A DNA stretch of 64,000 bases from Deferribacterales bacterium (GCA_050251945.1 JBFWLW010000002.1:224001-288000); one strand, 5' to 3'; numbered from the stretch's first letter, positions 36,991-60,214 are shown. Numbers and translations are program-made. The notes: generated by a model from the sequence alone, not told the origin.

Positions 36991-38631
36991 CTATTTACCG
37001 ATTATACACCCGCCTTCCGCTTTGTACACGGCAATAAACGGGTAGTTACGATATATTCGCTTAAAACATCCTATATCGGAGCTGCCAATAATAAGCGTTT
37101 TTCCAAAAATTGAATTTTCTGTTTTATTGTTGAAAACCGAAAAATAAGCTCCATTTCTATGTAATTTTAGTCCTGAATCGGAATTATGTTCAATATTCGT
37201 AAAATTTAATCCGTCCGATGAAAAATATCCGTGACTGCCGCCTTTAAAAGGCACTCCTTCTGTTAACACCAGCCAGACATCTTTTCCCCCGCCTATGGTT
37301 TTAAGCAATGTCCTGTCAGGCTGCGCCGAAGCCAGAAGCTTCTGCGACATGTACCATCCCTCTTTGAACTGCGAGGTTCCGTCCGCCGCCGCACGCACCC
37401 CTTTAAGATATTCCAGAATAAACCCGTTATCCCACTGGGTAACAACGTTTGCGCCCTTCGGGATGTCAAGTTTAGCGAAATCTTCAAACACCTCTTTTTC
37501 AACATACGGAGCAGGAACAAAATATACCGCAGAAACAGCAAAGGCAAAAAAGAACGCAGAAGACATTGAAAGCGCTTCGCCGAACCGCCCTGCGCGCCTG
37601 AATACATATGAAAAAAGCACACCGAAACCGATGCCGGCAAAAACGCCGAGATACATTCCGAAGCGCTGACCTTTAAAGAACATCAGACACCCAAGCAAAA
37701 ACAGCGGAGCAAGCAGGTAGATTCTGCGAAATGTCACCGCAAAAAGAACCAGTCCCGCCAGTGCGGAATAACCGTCAAGCGTGATCAGCCTCATGTTGTC
37801 CCAGAAGCTTTTGACTCCAAGTTCCGCAACGTCTGCGGGATAGAACCTTCCGGCATCTGTCATGAAACCAATCAGACCTTTGAAACCCAGAGCAAGCTGA
37901 AAAGGTGAACAGAAAATAATAAACACAGCAACAGAATACAAGACCATTTTCTTATTTTTGCACACAATGAGCAGATGCAGACTGAGCATAACCAGCCAGA
38001 CGACAGCGAATCCCGCATGGGCGTACCATCTGTAGTGAAGCCAGCAGAAAATCCCTGCCAGAGCCGAATACAGGAGAGTTTTACCGCGCCCTGCAAGATA
38101 GATGAACAATATAACCGTCAGAGGAAAAAACAGATTAAGCATATCGGTATCAGCCTGAAACGCAGTTGTCCGCCCCAGATAAGCCATGCAAAGCCCGCCT
38201 GTGACAGCACCGCCTATCGCTGCCGACGGCATACCGTTCAGGTACAGAAATATCCCCAGAGGAAAAACGAACAGACCGGAAAGAAATACAGTCAGCAGGC
38301 TGGATGCAGTCTCCAAATCCAGCCCCGCAGCGGAGGCTGTCTTTTCAGTAAGCAGGCTTATTAAAGGAGTGAAAGGAAACGGGGTGCCTGTTGAAAGCGG
38401 GTCTTTGCCGCTGACAAAAGAACCGTCTGCGATCTCCTTCGCATAGCGAAGCCACCTGTAGCCGTCGTTTGAAACAAGGATGACGTGTCCGGCGGCGCGG
38501 TGATATGCACTGTCCAGAATGTCCGTGTGCTGGCGGTATCTTACGGCAGTATTTGCCAGATATGCCATAACCAGCAGAAGGGCAAAAAAAAGGACACCGA
38601 TTTTGCGGTGTCCTCTCTTATATTCAGACAT
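36991..38631 (-). CDS. STT3/PglB-like oligosaccharyltransferase (GT-C), compact and divergent
   Basis: SNDGYRWL, YLGRT...DTDML, DVAE, GQRF, QWDNG, ADGTSQ motifs in PglB order; many hydrophobic segments. Confidence 0.75.
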   Translation of the reverse strand: MSEYKRGHRKIGVLFFALLLVMAYLANTAVRYRQHTDILDSAYHRAAGHVILVSNDGYRWLRYAKEIADGSFVSGKDPLSTGTPFPFTPLISLLTEKTASAAGLDLETASSLLTVFLSGLFVFPLGIFLYLNGMPSAAIGGAVTGGLCMAYLGRTTAFQADTDMLNLFFPLTVILFIYLAGRGKTLLYSALAGIFCWLHYRWYAHAGFAVVWLVMLSLHLLIVCKNKKMVLYSVAVFIIFCSPFQLALGFKGLIGFMTDAGRFYPADVAELGVKSFWDNMRLITLDGYSALAGLVLFAVTFRRIYLLAPLFLLGCLMFFKGQRFGMYLGVFAGIGFGVLFSYVFRRAGRFGEALSMSSAFFFAFAVSAVYFVPAPYVEKEVFEDFAKLDIPKGANVVTQWDNGFILEYLKGVRAAADGTSQFKEGWYMSQKLLASAQPDRTLLKTIGGGKDVWLVLTEGVPFKGGSHGYFSSDGLNFTNIEHNSDSGLKLHRNGAYFSVFNNKTENSIFGKTLIIGSSDIGCFKRIYRNYPFIAVYKAEGGCIIGK

Positions 38632-47481: not shown

Positions 47482-48372
47482 TCATTTATTAAAAAGAGAA
47501 AAATAATCCACTCTTTCAAATACTTCCAACTTGCCGCCTGCGGTGGCGTTGCGTATCTTTCCGCCTGAACGTTCAAAGAATTTACCCGCCTTGGCGTATC
47601 CTTGTTCCATCCTGTCCACCATAGGGTCGTGCCAGCGCTTGCCCTTTCCGAAATAATCGGGATGGAAATGGTTGGGGTCGTCGCCTGTGGAGGTTATCTT
47701 AAGTCCCTCGACCTCCGCTTCCTGCGGAATTATGTAATGGTGGTCAAAACCTATAAGATAAAGCTCGCGGATGCCGAAGAAATATGCAAGCTGCATGCAG
47801 ACATATGTCACAGATCCGCCTGTGAACACCTGACGTGCGGCGTTAGTCGAAAAATAAGGAAAATCGGGATAGTTGTCATATCGCATACGAACGTTCAGCC
47901 AGTTTGTGCAATCATCCGGTTTAAGACAGTAGCGCAGGTAGTTTCCGAACCATTTCTGGGTTCCTTTCAGCCTGTTTATCTCGTCTGCTCTGTCCTCCGC
48001 AACAAAGTTATCCTCGACAACGTAGTGCGTGGGCAAAAATCCCATCTTTTCATAGTTCAGATATATGCTGTTAACGCCTATAGTTATCTCATCTTTCAGA
48101 AGAGTGAGATCAAGCTTATTGAGACTGGGACCGTTGCCTATCAGAAACCCTCTTTTTCCCTTATGAGCATTATGATATTTCAGAATATTGCGGTGATTTT
48201 CAGTCAGCCCGATGCCGCGCCCCGCCATTTTATACCCGAAAGTCTCCACCACAAGCTCCATCGCGGACGAATCATATTTATCCTTGTATGGTCTGGTGTA
48301 GCCGTCTATAAGCTTTGAGCGTATCTTTCTGTATGCTCTGTAAGGCACCGAATTCTTAATGAGTTCTTTCAT
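47482..48372 (-). CDS. DUF115 (MptE-like/Maf-like) protein, putative ulosonate glycosyltransferase
   Basis: FLIGNGPSL...IGVNSIY...SVTYVCMQLAYFFG..LYLIGFDH; last gene of the polysaccharide operon. Confidence 0.7.
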   Translation of the reverse strand: MKELIKNSVPYRAYRKIRSKLIDGYTRPYKDKYDSSAMELVVETFGYKMAGRGIGLTENHRNILKYHNAHKGKRGFLIGNGPSLNKLDLTLLKDEITIGVNSIYLNYEKMGFLPTHYVVEDNFVAEDRADEINRLKGTQKWFGNYLRYCLKPDDCTNWLNVRMRYDNYPDFPYFSTNAARQVFTGGSVTYVCMQLAYFFGIRELYLIGFDHHYIIPQEAEVEGLKITSTGDDPNHFHPDYFGKGKRWHDPMVDRMEQGYAKAGKFFERSGGKIRNATAGGKLEVFERVDYFSLFNK

Positions 48373-49574
48373 CTGTCACCCTTAATTTTCTGATATATCC
48401 GTTCATAGTTAGCCGCCATAATATCTTCGCCGAAAAACTCTTCCACGAACGGGCGGCAGTTCTTTTTGATACTGTTTATCTTGTCTCTGTTTTCATACAG
48501 ATATTTTATTTTTTCTGAAAGCTGTTTAACGTCATACGGGTCGAAAAGCCAGCCGGTTTGCCCCTCTATAACCATTTCGGGAATGCCGCCTGTTGCGGAA
48601 CCCAGAACAGGAGTCGAACACGCAAGGCTCTCCAGCACGGTGTTGGGCAGGTTGTCCACTATCGACGGAATACAGAACACGTCCGCACAGCTGTAGTATC
48701 TGCTGATGGCGTCTGTGCCGGAAACAGATCCTTTTATGACAAGTCTGGGATCACGCTTGTCAGTCTTCGCCACACTGCCGATGACGACCACCTGCATATC
48801 AAGCTCCGGAACCATTTTGACCGCTTCTATAACCGCATCAATGTTCTTGCGCTTCCATGCGCCTGTTCCGGCAAGAAACAGCAGAGTAAACTTATCGGGG
48901 CTGATGCCGACGTATTCGCAGGCTTCAGCCTTTTCAATATTCCCTATGGACGAGAGCGGGATACCGTTATGCACCATCACAGCTTTCTTGCGTCCTTTAA
49001 GCACAGCGTCCGCAAGGTCTGTCAGCCACATGGACGGCGGGGTAAATGTTACGTTAGCCGCCTTATTACCTGCGATATCCTCAGGACGGTAAAGATGCCT
49101 GCGCCGGCTTTCTATCGGACAGTAGGTTATCTCCTCACCGTCCAGCGCTTTCATCTTATAGTTGTATCCGTACAGTGCGAACTGATCGTGCATTGTCCAC
49201 ACAACAGGGAATTCGCTTGCAAGTTTCGCTATCTGTTTCTGCGTGAAATAGCAGTTGTGCAGATGCACCACGTCAGGCTTGAACTGTCTGACACGGCTTA
49301 AAAAAACCGAAAATATCAGATTTCTGTACACCTCTGTGCGGGTGTACCTCGCCATTGTCCGGACAAGACTGTAGACAGCCTTTTTCGGCAGAGAATAGCT
49401 TCTGCCGAGATGCCAAGGGCGTATACCTGTATTTTTATATAAGGAGTAGTCGTTCTTCTGTTTTTCAAAAACGTACATGACCTCATGGGTCTTCGCCGCT
49501 GCAGCGGCAAGTCTGAATGCGGCGATGGAAGCACCGCAGCCGTAGTCATTCTCACTGTATAAAATGAGCCTCAA
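48369..49574 (-). CDS. GT4-family glycosyltransferase
   Basis: VVHLHN, VVWTMHD, DNLPNTVLESLAC, GGIPEMV. Confidence 0.9.
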   Translation of the reverse strand: MRLILYSENDYGCGASIAAFRLAAAAAKTHEVMYVFEKQKNDYSLYKNTGIRPWHLGRSYSLPKKAVYSLVRTMARYTRTEVYRNLIFSVFLSRVRQFKPDVVHLHNCYFTQKQIAKLASEFPVVWTMHDQFALYGYNYKMKALDGEEITYCPIESRRRHLYRPEDIAGNKAANVTFTPPSMWLTDLADAVLKGRKKAVMVHNGIPLSSIGNIEKAEACEYVGISPDKFTLLFLAGTGAWKRKNIDAVIEAVKMVPELDMQVVVIGSVAKTDKRDPRLVIKGSVSGTDAISRYYSCADVFCIPSIVDNLPNTVLESLACSTPVLGSATGGIPEMVIEGQTGWLFDPYDVKQLSEKIKYLYENRDKINSIKKNCRPFVEEFFGEDIMAANYERIYQKIKGDR

Positions 49575-50857
49575 CCAAAATACCTCTTGTAATATTTCCC
49601 GAACACTTCACGCAAATTGCGGTAAGTGCTAAGTTTGTCACGGACACTTGTATATGGCGTTTTGAAGTGTTCGTCAAGGGTATGCATAAGTTCTGCTGCA
49701 ACTTTCTTCTCCTGCTCGTGCCAGCGGCGGGCTGTATCACCCCGTTCCTTTTCCGCTTCGTTCCATCTTGCGAACTTTTCCGCCTCTTCTTTCTCATGGT
49801 CGTGCCAGCGGTGAAGGGTGGCAAGTTCGTCTTTCAGGTTGTTGCGTATGGTACTGAAATTTTCTATACCCTCTTTAAGAAACTCGCGGGAGAAGGTCAG
49901 TTTTTCCAGATATGCCATTATATCCGAATAATTTGCAGACGTATCAACAACTGCGGCGTTATCGCACGGTCTGAACACCGCCTCTGCCTTTTCGTTGGCT
50001 GCCAGTGTTTCAAATCCGCCCTCCGCAAGGATCGCAGTGAGCGACACTCTGTTGAAGTTGTACATGTGCGCATGGATAACATATTCAAGAAAGTCAAAAT
50101 TGTAAGTGGCAATATTGCCTATATTGCAAAGCCCCGGAACCTCTATATAAAGAAGTCCTTCCGGCTTAATCAGTTTTTTAATTTTAGACATCTCTGCCTT
50201 AAGGTCGGTGAAATGCTCAAAAACGTGACTCAGTATGAGTACGTCATATGTTCCGCCCTTCGCGATCATCGTGTCCAGATCGCCGTATACGATGTTTACG
50301 CCAGCCTGCCGGCACTCCTCAATACAGTCGTAGCTGTATTCCGTGCCTTCGGCGCTGACAGCAACTTCCTCTTTTGCCGCCTCCGCTGTAAACTCTTTGA
50401 GAACGTTGCCTGTTCCGGCGCCTATCTCCAGAAGAGAAAGTTCTTTCTTATCCGGCAGATAAGGTTTCAGCATACGGTATATCTTGTTTCCCTGCCACAG
50501 ACGGAAAAGCGCCTGCTGGTCGTGAACGTGCAGATGTCCGTAGTTCAGGACATGGTAAAATCTGTCGTAATATTCGGGAAGAGATGACGGCGCTATGCGT
50601 GGCGAAGTTATCACCAGCCCGCATTTTTTGCAGATAAGAGAACTGAAAGGCAGCCCGAAACGGTCAATATCGGCTATTTTTTCAAGCTCTTCGCTGCCGC
50701 ACTGACAGGAAGTGACCTCTTCGGTTTTTATTTTACCGTTTTTTATGTATTCCAGAAAAAGAAGACGCTGCTGTTCGGCGTTTTCGTTCAGCTTTCTGGG
50801 TATTCGGTCTTTTTCAAAAAGGATATTGCGGAACTGAGGAAAATTGATGTCACTCAT
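49571..50857 (-). CDS. Class I SAM methyltransferase with an N-terminal Cys cluster and a C-terminal repeat/coiled coil
   Basis: CQCG...CKKCG; LEIGAGTG; SHVFEH; YIEVP; tail of RWxxxEK repeats. Confidence 0.82.
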   Translation of the reverse strand: MSDINFPQFRNILFEKDRIPRKLNENAEQQRLLFLEYIKNGKIKTEEVTSCQCGSEELEKIADIDRFGLPFSSLICKKCGLVITSPRIAPSSLPEYYDRFYHVLNYGHLHVHDQQALFRLWQGNKIYRMLKPYLPDKKELSLLEIGAGTGNVLKEFTAEAAKEEVAVSAEGTEYSYDCIEECRQAGVNIVYGDLDTMIAKGGTYDVLILSHVFEHFTDLKAEMSKIKKLIKPEGLLYIEVPGLCNIGNIATYNFDFLEYVIHAHMYNFNRVSLTAILAEGGFETLAANEKAEAVFRPCDNAAVVDTSANYSDIMAYLEKLTFSREFLKEGIENFSTIRNNLKDELATLHRWHDHEKEEAEKFARWNEAEKERGDTARRWHEQEKKVAAELMHTLDEHFKTPYTSVRDKLSTYRNLREVFGKYYKRYFG

Positions 50858-52022
50858 ATGTCTCCCATTTCTGACCGATAGTCACAAAACCGAAAACCCT
50901 CTCCTGCGGAGCAACGCAGAAGCCGCCGTTAAGCTGTCTGTAAAGGAACTCCCGTCCGTCGACAACCGCGATGACGGAAACATAATGTCCGGGGTTGAAA
51001 ACGCAGGGGATCCTTAATTTACCTTTTACCACATTATTTGTATTAGAAAAATGGAATTTTGCAGTGTCTGTATTAAAGGCGGTAACCAGCGTTCCTTCGG
51101 AAGTATACAAAGGTATGCCTACTATCAAATTTTTCGGCTCGAAATGCAGACGGAACGAGAAGCTGAAAACCATCTCCTCACCAAGCCTGTATTCCTCTTT
51201 ATCCCAGAAATGGGTGACGTCCGATATCTTTCCGTCGTTGTGATAGATGTCCCCGTAAAACGGTCGCACAGGTTCTGATTTACCTTCCGGTTTCTGGCTG
51301 GAAAGATACAGTTCTATCGCCTCGTCGGGACTGCCGTAAAAAATCGACTGCCCGTTCTGTATTACCATAACCTTGTCACAGAACATCTTTACGTCGTTCA
51401 TGGAGTGGGAAACGAATATAACAGACATCCGCTCCCGCATGGAATTTATCTTCGCAAGACACTTCTGGCGGAATACAAAATCACCCACCGCAAGTACCTC
51501 GTCAAGTATCAGTATGTCAGGCTCAACTGAAGTTGCTATACCGAACCCGAGACGGGACTTCATCCCGCTGCTGTATGTTTTAACAGGCTGGTTTATGTGA
51601 TCCTTCAGTTCTGCGAATCTGATTACCTCATCAGATTTCGCTTTGAGCATATCGCCGGAAAAACCGTTTATCTTCAGATTGAGAATTATGTTCTCCATAC
51701 CCGTAAGCTCAGGTTTCAAACCGGACGTGACCTCAAGTATAGCCGCCACCCGTCCGCGTTTATGTACAACACCGGAGGTGGGCTGGATAACCCCCGCAAT
51801 TATCTTAAGCAGGGTGGATTTGCCGTGACCGTTGCGCCCGATAATGCCTAGGGTTTCGCCGCGCTTTAATTCCAGCGAAACGTCTCTAAGCGCATGAAAT
51901 TCCCTGTGGCGCGGTCTGCCTGTCAAGCTGAAAACCTCCAGAACACGGTCGAAAGGTTTATCGTACAATCTGTATATCTTGTTGATGTTCTCAGCGCGGA
52001 CAACGGTAACTTTATTAGGCAT
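50850..52022 (-). CDS. wzt: Polysaccharide ABC exporter ATPase with a C-terminal Wzt_C domain
   Basis: GRNGHGKST, YSSGMKSRLGF, LDEVLAVGD, and a C-terminal extension of about 140 aa. Confidence 0.92.
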   Translation of the reverse strand: MPNKVTVVRAENINKIYRLYDKPFDRVLEVFSLTGRPRHREFHALRDVSLELKRGETLGIIGRNGHGKSTLLKIIAGVIQPTSGVVHKRGRVAAILEVTSGLKPELTGMENIILNLKINGFSGDMLKAKSDEVIRFAELKDHINQPVKTYSSGMKSRLGFGIATSVEPDILILDEVLAVGDFVFRQKCLAKINSMRERMSVIFVSHSMNDVKMFCDKVMVIQNGQSIFYGSPDEAIELYLSSQKPEGKSEPVRPFYGDIYHNDGKISDVTHFWDKEEYRLGEEMVFSFSFRLHFEPKNLIVGIPLYTSEGTLVTAFNTDTAKFHFSNTNNVVKGKLRIPCVFNPGHYVSVIAVVDGREFLYRQLNGGFCVAPQERVFGFVTIGQKWETYE

Positions 52023-52834
52023 CAAAGTACCTCCGCAAAATGGGGACGAAGTTTTTTGAAAACAACAACGCCAATGAGCAGAAAAACAAATGCAAAAACG
52101 ATAAAAAATGCCAGCGGACGCGGATATTCAAAAAACCATCTGTGATAGATAAACGTATTCCTATAACCTTCAACGATGTAAACCATCGGATTTATGTACA
52201 GAAAAATGCGGTATTTTTCGGGTACGGACGTCGCCTGCCAGAAGATTGGCGTAACCCAGAAACCTGTTTGCAGGACAACGCTGATCACCTGACTCATATC
52301 TTTCGTAAACACCCTTACAGCACCTGTAAACCAGCCAAGCCCGAGCGTTATTATGAAAATACAAAGCAGGTAGAACGGAAGCTGGAGCCAGTATATAGAC
52401 GGGTAATAACCCTTATAAACGGCTATTCCGGCTATTATCAGAAGAAAGATAAGATGCAGATAGAAAGAGGAGATTATCTTTACCAACGGCAGTATGCTCA
52501 CGCGGAAATCCACTTTTTTCACCAGATGTCTGTTGTTTACAACAGCGTTCATGCCGCCGGTAACACAGTCTGCAAAATACGCCCATGGCGCATAGCCGCT
52601 CACCAGATACAGAATAAACGGAACATGGTCGCTTCCGACACGTTTGAAACCCACAGAGAAAACAAGCCACATGGTCGAAACAAACAGCAGAGGGCGGAAA
52701 AGCGCCCAGAGCAGACCAAGGTATGACCCCAGATACTGCTGGCGGAAATCGTCCACTGAAAGCGCAAAAACGAGCGAGCGCTCTCTGTAGATGTTCATGA
52801 TGAATTCTAACGATCCTTTAATTATGCCGGACAA
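52022..52834 (-). CDS. wzm: Polysaccharide ABC exporter permease
   Basis: QYLGSYLGLLW, LVKKVDF, FWVTPIFW, NPMVYIVEGYR, HFAEVL. Confidence 0.92.
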   Translation of the reverse strand: MSGIIKGSLEFIMNIYRERSLVFALSVDDFRQQYLGSYLGLLWALFRPLLFVSTMWLVFSVGFKRVGSDHVPFILYLVSGYAPWAYFADCVTGGMNAVVNNRHLVKKVDFRVSILPLVKIISSFYLHLIFLLIIAGIAVYKGYYPSIYWLQLPFYLLCIFIITLGLGWFTGAVRVFTKDMSQVISVVLQTGFWVTPIFWQATSVPEKYRIFLYINPMVYIVEGYRNTFIYHRWFFEYPRPLAFFIVFAFVFLLIGVVVFKKLRPHFAEVL

Positions 52835-52845
52835 ATCTTTCTCCG

Positions 52846-53478
52846 TCAGCCTATGTATTCTTTTTCAAATGCAGTGTAATCGTCTATGTAATAATCGGAA
52901 AATGCCCGGAGGCGTTCTCCGTTGTATCCGCAGAATATGAGTCCGTTGTGCTTCGCGGCATCATAGTCAGCCCGCGAATCACCAATCATAGCAACCTGAT
53001 ATCTGTCGTAACCATTCTCTTTTATGATGTCGTGAACAACGTCGTTCTTTGGGGTGGGGGAACCGTAAATTGAAACGAAATACTGTGTCAGATCAAGACA
53101 TTTACAGATATAGCGCAATTCTTTCTGTTCCGTTCCGGACGCGATGTGCATAGGGATATGCATGTAATGGCGCTTTATAAAATCCAATGTATCCTGAATT
53201 ATATATTTTTTATCGGTAAGCTCCGCCAGCATCAGCTTTGAATACGTTTCCGCATATTCGTTTACAGTCTCTTCCGTAACGCTTCTGCCAAGGATGTTCT
53301 CAAACATATGACGGATTTTCACAAATCTTGATATGCCGCCGTTGTTTCTGTGGAACTCAAGAAGCCTGTCAACGGCAGTCTTATCAAAATCAGCGAAAAG
53401 AAGTTCAAATCCTTTATCTTTAACGGGCATTGAATCAAGCACAACACCGTCAAAATCGAAAATTATACTCTGTATCAT
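52846..53478 (-). CDS. HAD-superfamily hydrolase
   Basis: FDFDGVVLDS, IASGT, MIGDS. Confidence 0.88.
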   Translation of the reverse strand: MIQSIIFDFDGVVLDSMPVKDKGFELLFADFDKTAVDRLLEFHRNNGGISRFVKIRHMFENILGRSVTEETVNEYAETYSKLMLAELTDKKYIIQDTLDFIKRHYMHIPMHIASGTEQKELRYICKCLDLTQYFVSIYGSPTPKNDVVHDIIKENGYDRYQVAMIGDSRADYDAAKHNGLIFCGYNGERLRAFSDYYIDDYTAFEKEYIG

Positions 53479-54131
53479 TCAATTTCTCCCACAACGGTAC
53501 AGGGCAGTCCGTCAGTATCGTCCACCCTTAAAGGCAATATAATAAGCCTGCTTATCATATTCAGCTCTTCATAATCAAGTTTCATATCCTCTAGAAGTAT
53601 AAGAGGTTTATCAGGGTTCAGAAAAGCCTTATGCGCTTTTCTGCCCTCCGGTCTGTTCTGAAAAGAGGACACGGACAGTGTGTCCATCCCGAACAGCCTT
53701 ACGTTTTTGTATTTATTTCGTATATAATCAGCAACTGATTCGTGAAATCCGAAATTTTTATCTGCATTTTCCTCGTCAAACCTGTCAAATCCTGTGCGCA
53801 CTATAATACAGTCAAACCCTCGGTCTTCGATGTTATCAAATTTATCAGCGAGTTCTTTACCGATAACATAGTCTGCCGGCTCAACATCAACAAACAGAGG
53901 ATCTGAAAAAAACCAGAAATCGGCATCAAACGCGGAAATATCCTGACCGTCTGCAAAAAAATGCAGCGGCATGTCGAGATGCGTTCCTGTATGCACACTC
54001 ATGCTCAAACGGGTATTGTTCGCGGCATCTCCCTTTGACATATCGGAGATACGGTCGAGTTCCACCTGTTTTTTCCCGCCGTAAGCGGGAGTTTCTGCAT
54101 TTATAGTGTGCGAAAGGAATATCCGTTTAAT
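53475..54131 (-). CDS. Cyclase-family (kynurenine formamidase-like) metal-dependent hydrolase
   Basis: HTGTHLDMPLHF motif, GMDTLSVS, LLEDM. The frame stays open upstream of the GTG at 54065 (IFLSHTINAETPAYGG) to an ATT at 54131 with an AAGGAG RBS. Confidence 0.8.
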   Translation of the reverse strand: MKRIFLSHTINAETPAYGGKKQVELDRISDMSKGDAANNTRLSMSVHTGTHLDMPLHFFADGQDISAFDADFWFFSDPLFVDVEPADYVIGKELADKFDNIEDRGFDCIIVRTGFDRFDEENADKNFGFHESVADYIRNKYKNVRLFGMDTLSVSSFQNRPEGRKAHKAFLNPDKPLILLEDMKLDYEELNMISRLIILPLRVDDTDGLPCTVVGEIE

Positions 54132-55029
54132 CGCCGTTCTCCTTGCGGTTTATCTCTCTGTCGTGTATCTCGCGGATACAGTCAAGAATCCCCTGCCCCA
54201 TATCAATGAAGGGGTTCGGCACCAGCTTTTTGCATACGCTTGGGTGGAACGAATACGGGGTGAGTTTATAATGGTGGTCGTTCACCTCTTTGTTGAGGAT
54301 TATCTCAACGTCGTTACCCAGAATCTCCTTTATCATGGTAAAAAGATCAACCCTTGGCATCCGTTCGATACCCGTAAGGATTATGTGACCGTTTGAAAAC
54401 CTGCTGTCCTCAATTATATCGACAGACATTGACGCTGCGTCCTGTGCGTGGATATACTCCCGCACCTCCTGCCCGTCCCTGTCGTGGACTATCTTTTTCT
54501 CGGTTATTGCGCTTTTCAGCACGGAATACAGGTAATTGTTTCCATATGCACGCTCTCCATATACCGAACCGTAACGGATGATAGTGAATTCCAGCCCGAA
54601 CGCCCTGTAATACTCCTCTGTGAGTTTTTCCGACGCCAGTTTGCTCACTCCGTAGAAAGAGCCTCTGTCACTAAGCGCGTATGCACTTGATGCGTAAATG
54701 TATCTTTTAATATTTTTATTTTTGCACCCCTCGAGGATATTGAGGTTGCCTACAATATTGGTCTCTATGGTCTCAACAGGCATGGTCACCGCCATGTCAA
54801 GATTCGCCATCCCTGCGAAGTTATAAACATAAGAAACCTCAGGAGTAATAAGCCTGCTTACCAGTTCCCTGTTCATTATGTTACATTCAACAAAATCGCA
54901 TCCGTCCGGCAGATATTCGCTCTTTCTCAGGTCTGCCGCAGTGACACGGTATCCGCGTTTCAACAGCTCCTCGACAACGTAGCATCCGAGAAATCCGGCT
55001 CCGCCGAAAACAACGACCCTCTCATTCAT
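54127..55029 (-). CDS. NAD-dependent epimerase/dehydratase (extended SDR)
   Basis: GGAGFLG, YASSA, YGVSK, RYGSVYG. Confidence 0.9.
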   Translation of the reverse strand: MNERVVVFGGAGFLGCYVVEELLKRGYRVTAADLRKSEYLPDGCDFVECNIMNRELVSRLITPEVSYVYNFAGMANLDMAVTMPVETIETNIVGNLNILEGCKNKNIKRYIYASSAYALSDRGSFYGVSKLASEKLTEEYYRAFGLEFTIIRYGSVYGERAYGNNYLYSVLKSAITEKKIVHDRDGQEVREYIHAQDAASMSVDIIEDSRFSNGHIILTGIERMPRVDLFTMIKEILGNDVEIILNKEVNDHHYKLTPYSFHPSVCKKLVPNPFIDMGQGILDCIREIHDREINRKENGD

Positions 55030-55975
55030 TTGAAAAGACCTCATTTTTAAGGTTTTTACCCGTCAGAAAGCGCACCGCCTCCTCAACGGACTGAACCTCC
55101 ATATCTGTGCGGCTGGCAGTTGTCGCCGCGCCCATGTGGCATGTGAAGAGCATGTTATCAAGCTCCAGCAGCTTGCCTTTGTAGGGTTCGTCAACGAAAA
55201 CGTCAGCCGCTGAACCGGCTATCACGCCGTTTTTCAGAGCGTCGTAAAGGTCGTCTTCGTTAACTATGCCGCCGCGAGCCGTATTGATTAGAAAAGCGTG
55301 TTTCTGCATCATGTTAAGCTCTTTAGCGGTGATAAAGTCTCTTGTATCCTTTTTCAGCGGCAGGTTGATGCTCACAATGTCGCTGTTTTTAAGAACGGTC
55401 TCTTTATCGGTATAGGTTATGCGCTCGTTGCGCCCGAAGATGATATCGGGGTTTGTATCGTGCGCCAGAATGTTTACGTTGAAACCTGAAAGCATGTGCG
55501 CAAGGCTCTTCCCGATGCGACCCATGCCGAATATGCCTATAGTCCGGCTATGAAGAAGAAGCCCCATGTGCCTTGCCCATCCGCCGTTTCGCATCAGCTT
55601 GTCGCTGGATGTTATCCTGCGGGCAAGGTCAAGCATCATTCCGATGCAGAGTTCCGCAACCGCAGTTGTGGGTGCTTCGGGGGTATAAGCCACGCGCACG
55701 CCGTATTTTCTGCAGAGTTCAAAATCCACGCCGTCAAGCCCCACACCGACGCGTGAGATAAGCTTGAGGTTGTGTGCTTTTTTAAACACTTCTTCCGTTA
55801 TGTTCTCGGTTCCCGCGACAAGAACGGTGGCATCCTTGATATCCTCGGCAAGTTCCGCAGAAGTCAGTTTACGACCCCTTCCGTTTTCGCGGTACTCTAT
55901 GCCGTTCTCCTCCAGAAGCTGTCGGGGAACAGGCGAAGTTCCGAAGAACGGGTGTGTCGATATGAATACCTTCAT
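55022..55975 (-). CDS. D-2-hydroxyacid dehydrogenase (phosphoglycerate dehydrogenase-like)
   Basis: SRVGVGLD, AVAE, GIFGMGRIG, INTARGG, DVFVDEP, TCHMG. Confidence 0.9.
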   Translation of the reverse strand: MKVFISTHPFFGTSPVPRQLLEENGIEYRENGRGRKLTSAELAEDIKDATVLVAGTENITEEVFKKAHNLKLISRVGVGLDGVDFELCRKYGVRVAYTPEAPTTAVAELCIGMMLDLARRITSSDKLMRNGGWARHMGLLLHSRTIGIFGMGRIGKSLAHMLSGFNVNILAHDTNPDIIFGRNERITYTDKETVLKNSDIVSINLPLKKDTRDFITAKELNMMQKHAFLINTARGGIVNEDDLYDALKNGVIAGSAADVFVDEPYKGKLLELDNMLFTCHMGAATTASRTDMEVQSVEEAVRFLTGKNLKNEVFSNE

Positions 55976-56727
55976 GCCTTGTGCCTGCTCATCTCTTCTC
56001 TTGCTTTCTGACCGAGGAAAAGGAAGTCAAGGCTGAACGCAAGGAAGGAATATCCGAGATCTATCTTCTCTTTCAGTTTTTCATATTCCGGCTGGATCAC
56101 ATGGAATCCCAGAGGAAAGTTAGCCGCCTTACAAGCTTTTTCAACGGCTATAAGCGCCTCTTTAACTTCTGGTCGGTCGTACTCGCCCGGCACGTTCATA
56201 GAACCTGAAAGATCATAAGGACCTATGATAATTCCGTCTATACCGGGGGTGGTTATGATATCGTTTATGTTGCGCACAGAGTCTATATGCTCAACCTGTG
56301 CAATGATAACTGATTCGTCTTTAAGCCATTCCTTATATTCGTCGAAACCGGTGCCGTATTTCTGCGCGCGTGCCAGTCCGACGCCGCGTTTGCCGATGGG
56401 CGGATATTTTGTAAACCGCACTGCCTGTTCTGCGTCCTCGCGGCTGTTCACCATGGGAACGATGATACCGTCGGCTCCGGCATCCATTACACGTTTAATA
56501 ACAACCTCTTCGTTTTTGCCCACGCGGACAAGGGCTTTCATGCCAGCCGCCTGAATGTGCCCGATGAGGTTCTGCGCAGCCGCAAGCTCTATTACGCTGT
56601 GTTCAAGGTCGATTGTGAGCCACTCGAACCCCGCTGTCGCCATTATCTCAATGACGGACTGGTGACCTATCGTCACCCATGAACCTATTGTGAGTTCGTT
56701 GTTTTTCAGCTTCTGTTTAAGAGACAT
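55972..56727 (-). CDS. HpcH/HpaI-family class II pyruvate aldolase
   Basis: IDLEHS, LVRV, DAGADGIIVPMV, YPPIGKRG, AQVEH, IGPYDLS. Confidence 0.9.
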   Translation of the reverse strand: MSLKQKLKNNELTIGSWVTIGHQSVIEIMATAGFEWLTIDLEHSVIELAAAQNLIGHIQAAGMKALVRVGKNEEVVIKRVMDAGADGIIVPMVNSREDAEQAVRFTKYPPIGKRGVGLARAQKYGTGFDEYKEWLKDESVIIAQVEHIDSVRNINDIITTPGIDGIIIGPYDLSGSMNVPGEYDRPEVKEALIAVEKACKAANFPLGFHVIQPEYEKLKEKIDLGYSFLAFSLDFLFLGQKAREEMSRHKA

Positions 56728-57799
56728 TTTCTACTCCGTTGTATCTTTTCGAGATACTTAGCAGGTATGACCCGTTAAGTGATATGTATTTTCTGCCCTG
56801 TGCCTCGCCGTATGCAAAGAGGGCTTCCATCTGTTCATCATGTCCGTTCTGATATTGTACATAATTTCTGTCGCGGAAAAAAGAGGGATGTGCATCAACA
56901 ACCTTTTGCATCAGCCCCTCATACTGGACAAGACTGTTGTGTTTCCAGAACATTTTGTCTCCGGAGCTTCTGCCGTTCGCTCCGAGAATATATATTTCAT
57001 CCGCAAGTGCGGATGCCGCAGGGAGCATCAGATAGGTTAGAATATTGTCGGTGACATGAACGGAAATATCTTCTGCGGAGGGGAAATTAAGCCCTTCGTT
57101 TCTTCCGACACCTATGATTTTATCCGAAATCCGCGGATAATGCGCCAGCATCAGAGCGACCATGTTTTCCGGCATCATAATATAAACGCCGTATTTCTCC
57201 GCCGTTTTAAGCACGTCGCGCCGGAATGTTTCGGAATATTCGTTCCAGCTGAAATGGTAAACAGGGTCGGCGAAACAGAGGATGTCGGGCTTTGCCCATT
57301 CGAGAAATTCGTCGTTTTTCACCACGCTGTTGCATATCACTTTTATCATGCCCAGCGTTTCCGGGTGTTTGTCATAGTCCGAGAATGACGCGCCAGTGAG
57401 GAAACAGCACGCCTTTTCTTTATCTTTAAGCTTCTCAGCCATTGCCGCGAAATTCTTTTGAGATAATTCTGAAAAATCTTTTCCTGAATGAGCACCGTAA
57501 AGATAACTCCAAGCGGTGCAGCTTTCCGTTGAATAGAAATTTTCATCCACAACGGCGCATTTGTGAAGCCTGAAAAGGTTTAAAAATATGAGCCGCCAGT
57601 CGGTTATGAGGTACAGATCGGCTTTGCCTTGCACGATTTCAAAAAAATCAGGCAGATACCAGCCGACCTTCTTCTGAAAGTCAGCATCTCTGCCGCCGAT
57701 AACACCTATTCTGCGAACGTTTACCGGTGTGCCGAAAAAGAGCTTGCAAAGTTTGCGGAACAGTCTGAAAACAAACCAGACCGCACGGCGAAAATTCAT
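56717..57799 (-). CDS. Hypothetical protein with a DUF115/Maf-like C-terminal region, putative glycosyltransferase
   Basis: FLTGASF...VICNSVV...FADP...YILGANG parallel the GNGPS / GVN / LIGFD pattern of the 47482-48372 protein. Confidence 0.55.
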   Translation of the reverse strand: MNFRRAVWFVFRLFRKLCKLFFGTPVNVRRIGVIGGRDADFQKKVGWYLPDFFEIVQGKADLYLITDWRLIFLNLFRLHKCAVVDENFYSTESCTAWSYLYGAHSGKDFSELSQKNFAAMAEKLKDKEKACCFLTGASFSDYDKHPETLGMIKVICNSVVKNDEFLEWAKPDILCFADPVYHFSWNEYSETFRRDVLKTAEKYGVYIMMPENMVALMLAHYPRISDKIIGVGRNEGLNFPSAEDISVHVTDNILTYLMLPAASALADEIYILGANGRSSGDKMFWKHNSLVQYEGLMQKVVDAHPSFFRDRNYVQYQNGHDEQMEALFAYGEAQGRKYISLNGSYLLSISKRYNGVENVS

Positions 57800-58467
57800 C
57801 CGTTCTTCCTTTTGATGTAAAGGAGTTCGGCCAGTTCAAAATCCTCCGGCTCGTCTATGTCCACAGCTTCCAGCTTGTTCATCTCGCTCATGGCGGGTTT
57901 AAGTCCTATTCGCTTGTTGCCTGCCGCCGCGAATGACGCTTTGCTGAAAACAAAAAAGTTGCTGTTCTCTTCGTAAACAGGCGGGAGATCCTGCGTGCGC
58001 AGAAGCTCAGCGGGGTTATGATTAACAGGGCTTCCGTCCGCCCAGTAAAGGCGCGTCTGGAGTCTTGTTACGGAAAAAACGGAATCGTATTTACCAAGGT
58101 TTGCGAAATATTCTTCTATCGCCCTGTCGATGGTCTCCGGTTTCACCAGCGGGTTTGTGCTGTGGGTCTGCAAAAAGTGTTCACCCTCCAGTTTCGACAG
58201 GTCATATCCGATGATGTCGTTCATAGCGACGAAATCCCCCTGAATCTCCACGGGTCTGTCTATTATCTGAACGCGGTCGAAATTTTTCAGCGCATCGTTC
58301 TTTATTATCCCGCTGTCAGTGTTTATGACAACCCTGTCTATATTTCTGCACTGCAAAAGCACGCTCATCACCGCATGGTAAAGCGGCTTTCCTGCGAAAT
58401 CGCGCATGTTCTTATTTTTAACCCTTTCGGAATTGCCCTTCATGGGCAGCAGTGCAGTCACCTTCAT
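57796..58467 (-). CDS. Acylneuraminate/ulosonate cytidylyltransferase family protein
   Basis: LPMKGNSERVKNKNMR, INTDS, QTHSTNPL, RTQDL, YEENS, DIDEPEDF; ATG at 58467. Confidence 0.9.
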   Translation of the reverse strand: MKVTALLPMKGNSERVKNKNMRDFAGKPLYHAVMSVLLQCRNIDRVVINTDSGIIKNDALKNFDRVQIIDRPVEIQGDFVAMNDIIGYDLSKLEGEHFLQTHSTNPLVKPETIDRAIEEYFANLGKYDSVFSVTRLQTRLYWADGSPVNHNPAELLRTQDLPPVYEENSNFFVFSKASFAAAGNKRIGLKPAMSEMNKLEAVDIDEPEDFELAELLYIKRKNG

Positions 58468-58585
58468 TTTGTCACCCGCATTAAATGTTTTAATGTGTAA
58501 TAATCCCCCTTTTATGGAACTGCAACAGATTTTTATTGATATTTGCCATAAACAGGCGGAATATACCGTTTCTGTGAGGTGCAAA

Positions 58586-59098
58586 ATGGCGATAATCACT
58601 GTTCTTGATGAATTGATAAAGAATTGTCCCGACGAAACCATAAAAAAATATCTGCTGACTCTCAAAGACGAAAACTCCGAAACTGTACGCAGGATAAAGG
58701 CTTTTAAGCCTGCCACGTTTGCAAGGTTTCAGATAACCGACGATATATTCGCCATAGAACAATCCTTTGAGACCAAAGACAGAAACCTTTGTTTCTTCGA
58801 GTCCCACAGAAGCTGCGTAGACATACAGATAATGCTTGGCGGCTGTGAGCAGATGGAGCTTTGCCGCATAGAAAAGCTGGAAACAGACGTTCCTTACAAC
58901 GATGAAAAAGACCTTATAAAATATAAAATATCAGACAGGGCATCAAAGCTTGCATTTGAAAAATATGACTGCGCGGTTTATTTCCCCGAAGACGCACACC
59001 TTTGCGTGGCAAAGCTCAATGAAACGTCCACAGTTTATAAAACTGTCTTAAAGGTGCCTGTGAGTTATAAAGATTTCTTCGCCGCTATCGTTTCATAG
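58586..59098 (+). CDS. YhcH/YjgK/YiaL (DUF386) family protein
   Basis: FESHRSCVDIQ and YFPEDAH motifs; ATG at 58586 follows GAGGT. Confidence 0.85.
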   Translation: MAIITVLDELIKNCPDETIKKYLLTLKDENSETVRRIKAFKPATFARFQITDDIFAIEQSFETKDRNLCFFESHRSCVDIQIMLGGCEQMELCRIEKLETDVPYNDEKDLIKYKISDRASKLAFEKYDCAVYFPEDAHLCVAKLNETSTVYKTVLKVPVSYKDFFAAIVS

Positions 59099-60144
59099 AA
59101 AGCTTTCGTTTCGGCGAAGCACCTGTCCCATGAGAACTTTGCGGAATGAGCAAACCCTTTTTCAATAAGCTCCATACGTCTATGTACAATACTGTCCATC
59201 GCCAAGGCAAAACCTTCAGGCGTCATATCACGGACGAGTATCCCCGCGCCGCCCGCCGCTTCCGGCAGTGAAGAACAGTCCGATGCGACAACAGGGCATC
59301 CGCACCGCATAGCCTCAAGAACGGGAAGTCCGAAACCTTCATAAAGTGAAGGATACAGCAGGCAGTCCGCCGCGGAAAAAATGTCTTTTATCTGTTCGTT
59401 GGTCATATATCCGAAGATCCTGTATCTGCCTTTAAGCTCTTGATCAAGAAGCGTCTGCTCGTCGTGCGTGACCTGTTTCCCCCCCAGAACAAGAAGAAAA
59501 TGCCCGCTCAACGCACACGCCATGACGGCAGTATCAAAATTCTTATATCCGCTCCGCTCGCCCACAAACACTGCGTATCTGTCGGATTTCAGTCCGAAAC
59601 CTGCAAATATCTCATCGCGGCTTTTTTCGGACGGTCTGAAATCATCACCGACACCGTTGTGTATGACCGTCACTTTTTCGTGGTCGGTCTCCGGAAAGAA
59701 GCGCAGAAGGTCTTTTTTCGTATTCTCCGATATGCAGATAACACCGTCCGCACGCCGTACCGCAGCGCGCTTCTGAGCGGTATGCACAACCCGTTTCAGC
59801 CCATGCACATAAAGTTCATATGTGAAATCATGCACGGTAACTATTTTTGCAGCCGAAACGTCCGTGCAGTCCCTGTAATAGCTTGAATGGAATACCGAAC
59901 CTCTTCCGAGCCGCACGCGGACAGGCAGATATCTGCTTATTTTAACGCGGATTCCGCTGTCGTTTATGATATTTTTCATATCAAGCGTTTCGCGGAATTT
60001 ATTTTCACACGGAAATTTCGGCTCAATGAAGGTAATTCGGCAGCCGGCATCTTTTAAAAAACGTGAGGCAAGTTCCTGCCAATAACGGGATATGCCGCCG
60101 GAGCGCTGGAGCCAGAAAACAATATTGTCGTAGAATATGTTCAT
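59065..60144 (-). CDS. GT4-family glycosyltransferase
   Basis: GGISRY, VTVHDF, YKNF, YPSLYEGFGLPVLEAMRCG. Confidence 0.92.
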   Translation of the reverse strand: MNIFYDNIVFWLQRSGGISRYWQELASRFLKDAGCRITFIEPKFPCENKFRETLDMKNIINDSGIRVKISRYLPVRVRLGRGSVFHSSYYRDCTDVSAAKIVTVHDFTYELYVHGLKRVVHTAQKRAAVRRADGVICISENTKKDLLRFFPETDHEKVTVIHNGVGDDFRPSEKSRDEIFAGFGLKSDRYAVFVGERSGYKNFDTAVMACALSGHFLLVLGGKQVTHDEQTLLDQELKGRYRIFGYMTNEQIKDIFSAADCLLYPSLYEGFGLPVLEAMRCGCPVVASDCSSLPEAAGGAGILVRDMTPEGFALAMDSIVHRRMELIEKGFAHSAKFSWDRCFAETKAFYETIAAKKSL

Positions 60145-60214
60145 ACAGGATATTAACATATCCTCACGAAACAGTTAAGATTTTTGTAACGACGCGGATG
60201 CCCTTTAAATGAAA

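Follow-up and report, generated by a model that had tools for sequence, protein, structure and literature searches.

A predicted synthase-independent route to a CMP-activated keto-sugar acid in a glycan gene cluster of a Deferribacterales bacterium

The DNA analysed here is a window of 64,000 nucleotides from the genome of a Deferribacterales bacterium (GCA_050251945.1, JBFWLW010000002.1:224001-288000). It contains, at positions 52,846 to 59,098, a gene cassette for which a NeuB-independent pathway to a cytidine monophosphate (CMP)-activated ulosonic acid of a surface polysaccharide had been predicted. The cassette is part of a coupled run of minus-strand genes that extends from position 58467 to position 47482 and encodes a CMP synthetase, a 360-aa protein, an HpcH aldolase, a 2-hydroxyacid dehydrogenase, an extended short-chain dehydrogenase/reductase (SDR), a cyclase-family hydrolase and a HAD phosphatase, followed by the products of wzm and wzt, a methyltransferase, a GT4 glycosyltransferase and, in the last position, a DUF115 protein (Table 1). 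The cassette genes overlap at their junctions by 4-23 nt, and 11 nt separate the HAD gene from wzm. Pfam matches to CTP_transf_3, HpcH_HpaI, 2-Hacid_dh, Epimerase, Cyclase, HAD_2, ABC2_membrane and ABC_tran with Wzt_C agreed with the run of enzyme families leading into wzm/wzt that the original prediction had described, and the divergent YhcH-family gene (DUF386) was likewise recovered on the plus strand, its start lying 118 nt upstream of the synthetase gene. The start of the latter was corrected to position 58467, which gives a protein of 223 aa, instead of a GTG codon farther upstream.

Table 1. Features of the cassette, the downstream operon and the flanking gene, in positions of the window
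Feature	Position	Strand	Basis or remark
CMP-ulosonate synthetase, NeuA/CMAS type, 223 aa	57796..58467	-	Pfam CTP_transf_3
360-aa protein with a putative sialyltransferase-like fold (Maf/CstII), likely CMP-ulosonate transferase	56717..57799	-	remote profile and predicted fold
HpcH/HpaI class II aldolase	55972..56727	-	Pfam HpcH_HpaI, residues
D-2-hydroxyacid dehydrogenase, likely aldonate(-phosphate) 2-dehydrogenase	55022..55975	-	Pfam 2-Hacid_dh, motif
Cassette-specific extended SDR, likely phospho-lactone maker	54127..55044	-	Pfam Epimerase; alternative start ATG 55029
Cyclase-family metal hydrolase, likely lactonase	53475..54131	-	HxGTHxDxPxH intact; probable ATT start
HAD phosphatase	52846..53478	-	HAD_2, DFDGV motif
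YhcH/YjgK/YiaL protein, 170 aa, likely anomerase or ring-opening helper	58586..59098	+	DUF386/YhcH
wzm, ABC-2 glycan exporter permease	52022..52834	-	ABC2_membrane
wzt with C-terminal Wzt_C domain	50850..52025	-	ABC_tran and Wzt_C
S-adenosylmethionine-dependent methyltransferase with C-terminal extension	49571..50857	-	family match
GT4 glycosyltransferase	48369..49574	-	family match
DUF115/MptE-like protein (PF01973), last gene of the operon	47482..48372	-	family match
Upstream GT4 glycosyltransferase	59065..60159	-	kept beside the cassette in five close Deferribacterota loci

To our knowledge, all bacterial ulosonic acids known so far arise from synthases that depend on phosphoenolpyruvate (PEP). 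The host genome, which is 99.97% complete, was searched as a whole for the respective proteins. The NeuB search yielded two weak matches, both to 3-deoxy-D-arabino-heptulosonate 7-phosphate synthases and hence no NeuB, and the NeuC search yielded no match to TIGR03568. Accordingly, the absence of neuB and neuC that had been noted for the window extends to the entire genome. KdsA and a dedicated KdsB are encoded on other contigs, and the genome makes Kdo.

The synthetase matched CTP_transf_3 over its full length (97.6 bits; cut-off 22.6) and retained the residues of the CTP, metal and carboxylate sites (K19, R71, Q100, D203 and D205). It was closest to CMAS (best E value 2e-19), whereas the similarity to KdsB was far weaker (E 5e-5); it failed the KdsB models (18-30 bits against cut-offs of 193-281), remained below the cut-off of the PseF model (75 against 206) and matched PpNeuA with an E value of 1e-16. 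The motifs PMK, QTHSTNP and GDFVxM are specific to its clade. Moreover, Arg186 aligned with chain residue 214 of PpNeuA, which corresponds to Arg196, the 'gatekeeper' for Kdn, according to a chain offset of 18 that was checked on Gln110 and Tyr183. Arg196 of PpNeuA is described to block the C5 N-acetyl group and to exclude Neu5Ac, and the R196L exchange to shift the preference from Kdn to Neu5Ac, in the portion of that study available (PMC12934254). Of 111 clustered synthetase reading frames, 106 had the arginine; two of the five exceptions were fragments, and the other three were second copies belonging to another synthetase type. Since Arg186 occupies the gatekeeper position, the substrate is likely an ulosonic acid without an N-acyl group at C5, in keeping with the missing NeuC. 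At this position the synthetase carries the arginine of a CMP-Kdn synthetase.

The cassette was found repeatedly in other genomes. Each of the 18 genome loci retrieved by means of the synthetase also encoded the aldolase and the SDR, and HAD phosphatase and dehydrogenase were present in 17 of them, the remaining locus being a cut contig. This co-occurrence indicates that the gene association is not due to chance, and the recurrence that the original prediction had proposed as a check was observed in several phyla, which according to the record titles are Deferribacterota, Thermodesulfobacteriota, Bacteroidota and Bdellovibrionota. Synthetases with 95-96% identity were encoded in named relatives, namely Seleniivibrio and Deferribacteraceae genomes. 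Cultured carriers include Seleniivibrio woodruffii and Hufsiella ginkgonis HMF7056, and SDR homologues are named for Maribacter, Winogradskyella tangerina and Croceivirga thetidis; the synthetase was detected on five plasmids, and an alphaproteobacterial plasmid carries five of the cassette genes. With the centre genome included in each sample, the synthetase was present in 8 of 68 genomes of its own phylum, seven of the eight representing one genus; two other large groups yielded it in 7 of 301 and 11 of 401 genomes sampled, and the SDR was present in 2 of 251 Flavobacteriaceae. For the SDR, no fewer than 7,712 protein clusters were recorded at E <= 1e-60. No match was obtained in E. coli genomes by blastn, in annotated phages or in viral contigs queried with a single protein.

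Altogether 123 loci were annotated, which can be divided into 56 with the cassette SDR, 14 aldolase-free loci with a classical SDR, the latter being a requirement of the typing rule, and 53 others, many of them on short contigs. The collection includes near-duplicates, such as L059 and L135 with equal length and equal gene order, and L028 is counted as aldolase-free only because of an SDR adjacent to a Kdo cluster upstream. Among the 56 SDR loci, the synthetase was encoded in 55, the aldolase in 53, the dehydrogenase in 49, the HAD phosphatase in 48, the cyclase in 25, 6-phosphogluconolactonase (Pgl) in 21, the DUF115 protein in 21 and YhcH, which in other loci lies co-directionally inside the cassette, in 21. 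The aldolase-free sister cassette, in contrast, contained neither HAD nor Pgl in any of the 14 loci and the cyclase in seven; the best matches of two classical SDRs tested included glucose/aldose dehydrogenases, below the cut-off. The recurrent neighbours were glycan genes (wzx, wzm/wzt, rml, gmd/fcl and methyltransferase genes), and none of the transporter, kinase or regulator genes typical of catabolic operons recurred in the loci.

The most informative variation concerned the position of the cyclase gene, which in most cassettes is placed between the SDR and HAD genes and can be taken instead by pgl. In 104 loci the cyclase was encoded 30 times and Pgl 21 times, but never both, and the 41 loci with SDR and HAD comprised 21 with the cyclase, 17 with Pgl and three with neither. 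Both cassette Pgl proteins that were tested exceeded the cut-off of the pgl equivalog TIGR01198. Two aldolase-free loci have in this slot a metallo-beta-lactamase protein that resembles L-ascorbate-6-phosphate lactonase weakly, with a score below the cut-off. As three unrelated hydrolase families occupy one slot, lactonase activity is their apparent common function, and by this gene replacement the cyclase-family hydrolase is likely a lactonase. The distribution of Zwf points in the same direction: among 121 sampled Flavobacteriaceae, Zwf was present in 21 and Pgl in 22 genomes, 21 of which coincided, and the lone Pgl without Zwf was the cassette copy. A cassette Pgl in the absence of Zwf implies that the lactone is made by another enzyme. 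Zwf was found in one of the 20 genomes whose cassette encodes a lactonase and was missing from 19, whereas all three testable genomes with an empty slot (G312, G326 and G540) possess housekeeping Zwf and Pgl elsewhere (Fisher p 0.002, a value that overstates the case against chance, as kin are non-independent and most genomes are incomplete metagenome-assembled genomes). This tally left out G051 (SDR not found, 86% complete), the aldolase-free and orphan genomes, L029 and L033, and counted G331 and G035, which represent the same locus, once. The genome G069 combines Zwf and Pgl with a cassette cyclase.

A non-canonical ATT codon at position 54131, which overlaps the SDR stop codon, is the probable start of the cyclase gene. 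The sequence GATTAAA at this junction was invariant in six of six aligned Deferribacterota sequences, a purine-rich stretch lies upstream of the ATT codon (window 54131-54127, minus strand), and the revised start moved the onset of the Pfam match from profile position 20 to 3. Such a start is suggestive of translational coupling or deliberately low expression.

The SDR, which is likely to make the phospho-lactone, is assigned from its context, not by homology. It has an intact YxxxK motif and a conserved arginine within the motif E-x-R-E-Y/F-I-H, and it lacks the loop that epimerases carry after the catalytic serine region; the nearest folds were UDP-hexose 4-epimerases with at most 24% identity, and the structural model provided no functional discrimination. 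Four Zwf-positive genomes (G069, G312, G326 and G540) retain the SDR, which rules it out as a simple Zwf replacement and makes plain glucose 6-phosphate an improbable substrate. In the 2-hydroxyacid dehydrogenase, R234 and E263 are invariant, as is the motif G55-x-[DE]57 in 45 of 45 SDR-type and 14 of 14 aldolase-free cassette proteins. This motif adjoins the position of Arg-Ser in the solved phosphoglycerate dehydrogenase 1WWK. The dehydrogenase lacks Arg-Ser and failed the SerA equivalog test, although that model includes extra domains (227 bits against a cut-off of 454). Both cassette types encode it together with the synthetase, and it is the sole companion of the latter in L030. The motif fits oxidation of an aldonate or aldonate phosphate at C2 as the likely reaction, by which a 2-keto acid would be obtained without an aldol step.

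The aldolase retains the class II metal and catalytic residues (H43, R68, E146 and D172) but remained under the equivalog cut-off in all four models, with 174 bits against 369 for HpaI. In the donor pocket, His209 replaces Leu212 of HpaI and was present in 61 of 61 ungapped rows; furthermore, Tyr171 replaces Ala174. For SwHKA, an aromatic replacement of the conserved leucine is credited with the use of hydroxypyruvate in the part of the report at hand (PMC10099721; residue numbering in PMC11194214, likewise in part). The sequence comparison hints at a hydroxypyruvate-type donor, although the equivalence of His209 with Phe210 of SwHKA was derived through Leu212 of HpaI and offsets instead of a direct alignment, which counts against this assignment. 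The existence of the aldolase-free sister cassette indicates that the aldolase is not the sole route to the keto acid.

The 360-aa protein is an accessory component, being present in 8 of the 56 SDR loci, and had originally been labelled DUF115-like. It gave no match in Pfam or NCBIfam, PF01973 included, and showed no similarity to the true DUF115 gene product of the window by BLAST or with a six-sequence HHalign comparison. Remote support for the label came from a deeper profile, which matched the DUF115 proteins of these loci weakly (HHalign E 2.8e-4, probability 41%, 196 columns), from PF01973 matches in 5 of 100 homologues and from the fold. The predicted structure (pLDDT 95) matched Maf 5MU5 best, CstII with a probability of 0.96-1.00, and also ST8Sia. 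The protein is regarded as a likely CMP-ulosonate transferase, against which it has to be considered that the fold matches are weak (E 3e-4 to 1e-2; TM 0.34 of the query) and that unrelated folds reached similar E values. The DUF115/MptE-like protein represents a second candidate for this function. All clusters obtained from the Protein Atlas were unnamed or generic. Two of three viral contigs (L111:2906-4330 and L112:5801-8443) encode the synthetase as a fusion with a GT29 sialyltransferase-like domain; the fusion is followed by a HAD gene in L111 and preceded by a gene of a phage capsid family in L112.

That the cassette specifies a synthase-free route to a CMP-activated keto-sugar acid without an N-acyl group is well supported and highly probable when the oxidative route described below and two aldolase-centred alternatives are taken together. 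The best mechanism appears to be an oxidative lactone route, to which we assign about an even chance, in which the oxidation of an aldose phosphate would take the place of the PEP-dependent synthase. The SDR would oxidise C1 of the aldose phosphate and so yield a phospho-lactone, the cyclase-family hydrolase would open the latter to an aldonate, and the 2-hydroxyacid dehydrogenase would oxidise C2 to give a 2-keto-aldonate phosphate. The aldolase would then break and remake the C3-C4 bond through a hydroxypyruvate-type intermediate, whereby the stereochemistry might be changed or the aldehyde part exchanged. Removal of the phosphate by the HAD phosphatase would allow ring closure, YhcH would supply the right anomer, and after addition of CMP by the NeuA-type enzyme the sugar would be transferred by the 360-aa protein of putative Maf/CstII fold, the DUF115 protein or both, and thus join a glycan exported by Wzm/Wzt. 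The product would keep the 3-hydroxyl group and be Ko-like instead of Kdo-like. In this chain of inferred steps, lactone opening, CMP activation and transfer are best supported, and C1 oxidation, the aldolase step and the identity of the sugar are weakest.

Several observations weigh against the oxidative route. The replacement of the cyclase by Pgl is confined to one SDR subclade, whose named loci are Bacteroidota, and a quick tree suggests maybe one or two events; Zwf is scarce in Flavobacteriaceae regardless of the cassette (21 of 121). The closest structures of the SDR are NDP-sugar 4-epimerases, its match to the archaeal SDR-type glucose-6-phosphate dehydrogenase Azf reached only E 1.4e-5, and its retention in Zwf-positive genomes has been noted above. 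Among named proteins, phosphoglycerate dehydrogenases match the 2-hydroxyacid dehydrogenase best. The job of the aldolase is the weakest part of the scheme, as the enzyme has no necessary role there and is nevertheless encoded in 53 of the 56 SDR loci. Moreover, all enzyme activities and the glycan are sequence-based predictions.

An aldolase-centred pathway was favoured by the original prediction. Pyruvate, or oxaloacetate with decarboxylation, would be condensed with an aldehyde to a 3-deoxy-ulosonate phosphate with a Kdn-like ring; SDR, dehydrogenase and lactonase would provide an acidic acceptor or a diacid oxidised at the far end (an ulosaric acid), and HAD phosphatase, YhcH and synthetase would complete the product. 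This appears somewhat unlikely, even though the catalytic residues of pyruvate aldolases are retained, the aldolase accompanies the SDR in nearly all loci, and the Kdn-type arginine and the NeuA-type fold suit a 3-deoxy sugar. It would also accommodate YhcH, an E. coli relative of which serves sialic acid, and the locus L085, which combines synthetase, aldolase, HAD phosphatase and dehydrogenase without SDR or lactonase. However, an invariant histidine replaces the donor-pocket leucine, members of this synthetase clade are accompanied by the dehydrogenase in loci that lack an aldolase, and no natural task is left for the dehydrogenase, which accompanies the synthetase in both cassette types. 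The part of the prediction concerning a NeuB- and NeuC-independent, CMP-activated keto-acid sugar of a surface glycan was therefore upheld, whereas the pyruvate aldol as key step to a 3-deoxy sugar is less favoured in view of the comparisons pointing to the oxidative lactone route, the 14 aldolase-free loci and the altered donor pocket, and it left the SDR, the cyclase and the dehydrogenase unexplained. Of the Dha-like sugars that had been named as an example, Dha itself appears unlikely. The ring of Dha is of the Kdo type, and a synthetase that resembles NeuA and not KdsB speaks against Dha if the latter is activated like Kdo.

It is less probable still that the dehydrogenase and the HAD phosphatase make hydroxypyruvate from 3-phosphoglycerate for the aldolase, which would join it with an aldose and thereby form a 3-hydroxy ulosonate, with the SDR epimerising the CMP-sugar and the lactonase merely repairing spontaneous lactones. 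The best named matches of the dehydrogenase, the His209 pocket, the structural kinship of the SDR with NDP-sugar epimerases and the dispensability of the lactonase in 3 of 41 loci would be accounted for, but the Arg-Ser motif of 1WWK is replaced in the dehydrogenase by a small residue and glycine, the cassette dehydrogenase motif recurs in loci without aldolase and HAD phosphatase, where hydroxypyruvate would be useless, and a repair role hardly explains why Zwf-negative genomes should have recruited a bona fide 6-phosphogluconolactonase. A known sugar supplied from elsewhere (Neu5Ac, Leg, Pse, Kdo or scavenged Kdn), with the remaining genes catabolic or unrelated, is very improbable. The usually catabolic roles of the neighbouring families, orphan synthetase copies (L138 and L139), a nearby NeuB in some loci (four loci in cluster 57) and the capacity of the host to make Kdo are in line with such a supply, which the original prediction had named as the finding that would speak against it. 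The genome, however, lacks NeuB and NeuC, Kdo is served by its own KdsB, Arg186 is predicted to exclude N-acyl sugars, three of the four NeuB-bearing loci (L060, L077 and L092) encode a separate second synthetase, and it is glycan genes, not genes of catabolic operons, that recur in the loci.

A comparison with known systems suggests that activation and transfer are of a familiar kind, whereas the precursor route appears new. The Kdn pathway, consisting of Kdn-9-phosphate synthase, a HAD phosphatase and CMP-Kdn synthetase (Prymnesium parvum PpNeuA, PDB 9T4Z), shares the gatekeeper arginine, the HAD phosphatase and, putatively, a sialyltransferase-like transferase with the cassette; the latter, like its genome, lacks the PEP-dependent synthase, adds four enzymes (aldolase, SDR, lactonase and dehydrogenase) and has its own synthetase motifs. 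The pathways to Neu5Ac, Leg and Pse (NeuC, NeuB and NeuA; PseF) resemble it in CMP activation by the same family and, putatively, in transfer of the Maf/CstII type, but the cassette contains no NeuB, NeuC, aminotransferase or acyltransferase. A Kdn pathway is also present in Bacteroides thetaiotaomicron. With the Kdo pathway (KdsD, KdsA, KdsC and KdsB) the cassette would have in common a sugar-phosphate route with dephosphorylation before CMP activation, although KdsA and KdsB are separate from it in the genome and its synthetase fails the KdsB models. The 2-ketogluconate reductases GhrB/KguD and the aldolases GarL/YfaU/HpaI act in catabolic sugar-acid routes, together with aldose dehydrogenase and lactonase. 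These routes use the same enzyme families and, under the oxidative lactone route, the same chemistry, but the cassette is located in glycan loci with a CMP synthetase and transferases, and the donor pocket of its aldolase is altered.

No characterisation of the cassette was found in the full-text literature, in agreement with the original prediction; most subscription carbohydrate journals were outside this scope, and a solved glycan could exist there. The acidic keto sugar Dha, to which nothing in the present analysis ties the cassette, is described in passages of two reviews as having an unidentified pathway and nucleotide form (PMC12168206, PMC3355719). In Klebsiella, a single CMP-Neu5Ac synthetase and a single synthase are reported among the capsule loci (PMC4616057), and no link of the cassette to a solved structure was obtained. 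Upstream of rfb in Leptospira serovar Hardjo, genes for a 6-phosphogluconolactonase, an HpcH-type aldolase, a cytidylyltransferase and a phosphoheptose isomerase are listed in a preprint (10.1101/771931) and may correspond to the cassette.

Genome surveys that predict ulosonic acids from NeuB or KdsA would miss this cassette, which predicts an acidic surface sugar, and its enzymes could be of use in making keto-sugar acids and their CMP forms. More tentatively, it may represent a widespread third way to ulosonic acids, in which sugar-phosphate oxidation and a hydroxypyruvate-type aldolase yield 3-hydroxy, nitrogen-free mimics of sialic acid. If so, a clade of the cyclase family would be lactonases and a clade of epimerase-like SDRs sugar-phosphate dehydrogenases, hydroxypyruvate aldol chemistry would have a natural biosynthetic role, and some viral contigs would carry the activation and transfer end of the pathway as a synthetase-sialyltransferase fusion.

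Among the downstream genes, the methyltransferase may cap the glycan chain. A 546-aa membrane protein encoded at 36991-38631 on the minus strand, 9 kb off the operon, matched the N-terminal family of STT3 oligosaccharyltransferases barely above the cut-off and could point to protein glycosylation in the host genome. Further arrangements were observed in other loci. L044:6533-15286 and L046:9959-16749 encode synthetase, aldolase, dehydrogenase, a GmhA-like SIS isomerase, a classical SDR, an AroB-related sugar-phosphate phospholyase (TIGR04425, above the cut-off in L044) and a GFO/IDH oxidoreductase, and this third cassette type hints at a cyclitol- or heptose-derived variant. Orphan synthetase genes with no cassette within 10 kb are located at L138:8384-10379, tail-to-tail with a Kdo transferase (waaA-like) gene, and at L139:9673-10422. 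The cassette of L129 and L143 (G540 contig C16) is split within one large glycan region, synthetase and aldolase being encoded about 48 kb from SDR, HAD phosphatase and dehydrogenase. The Competibacteraceae label of L017 may be wrong, as its SDR groups with Bacteroidota rows and genome G222 is common to its class sample and the sample of Flavobacteriaceae. The HAD gene of the close relative L012:14990-15620 aligns in two frames, which reflects either a frameshift or an assembly error.

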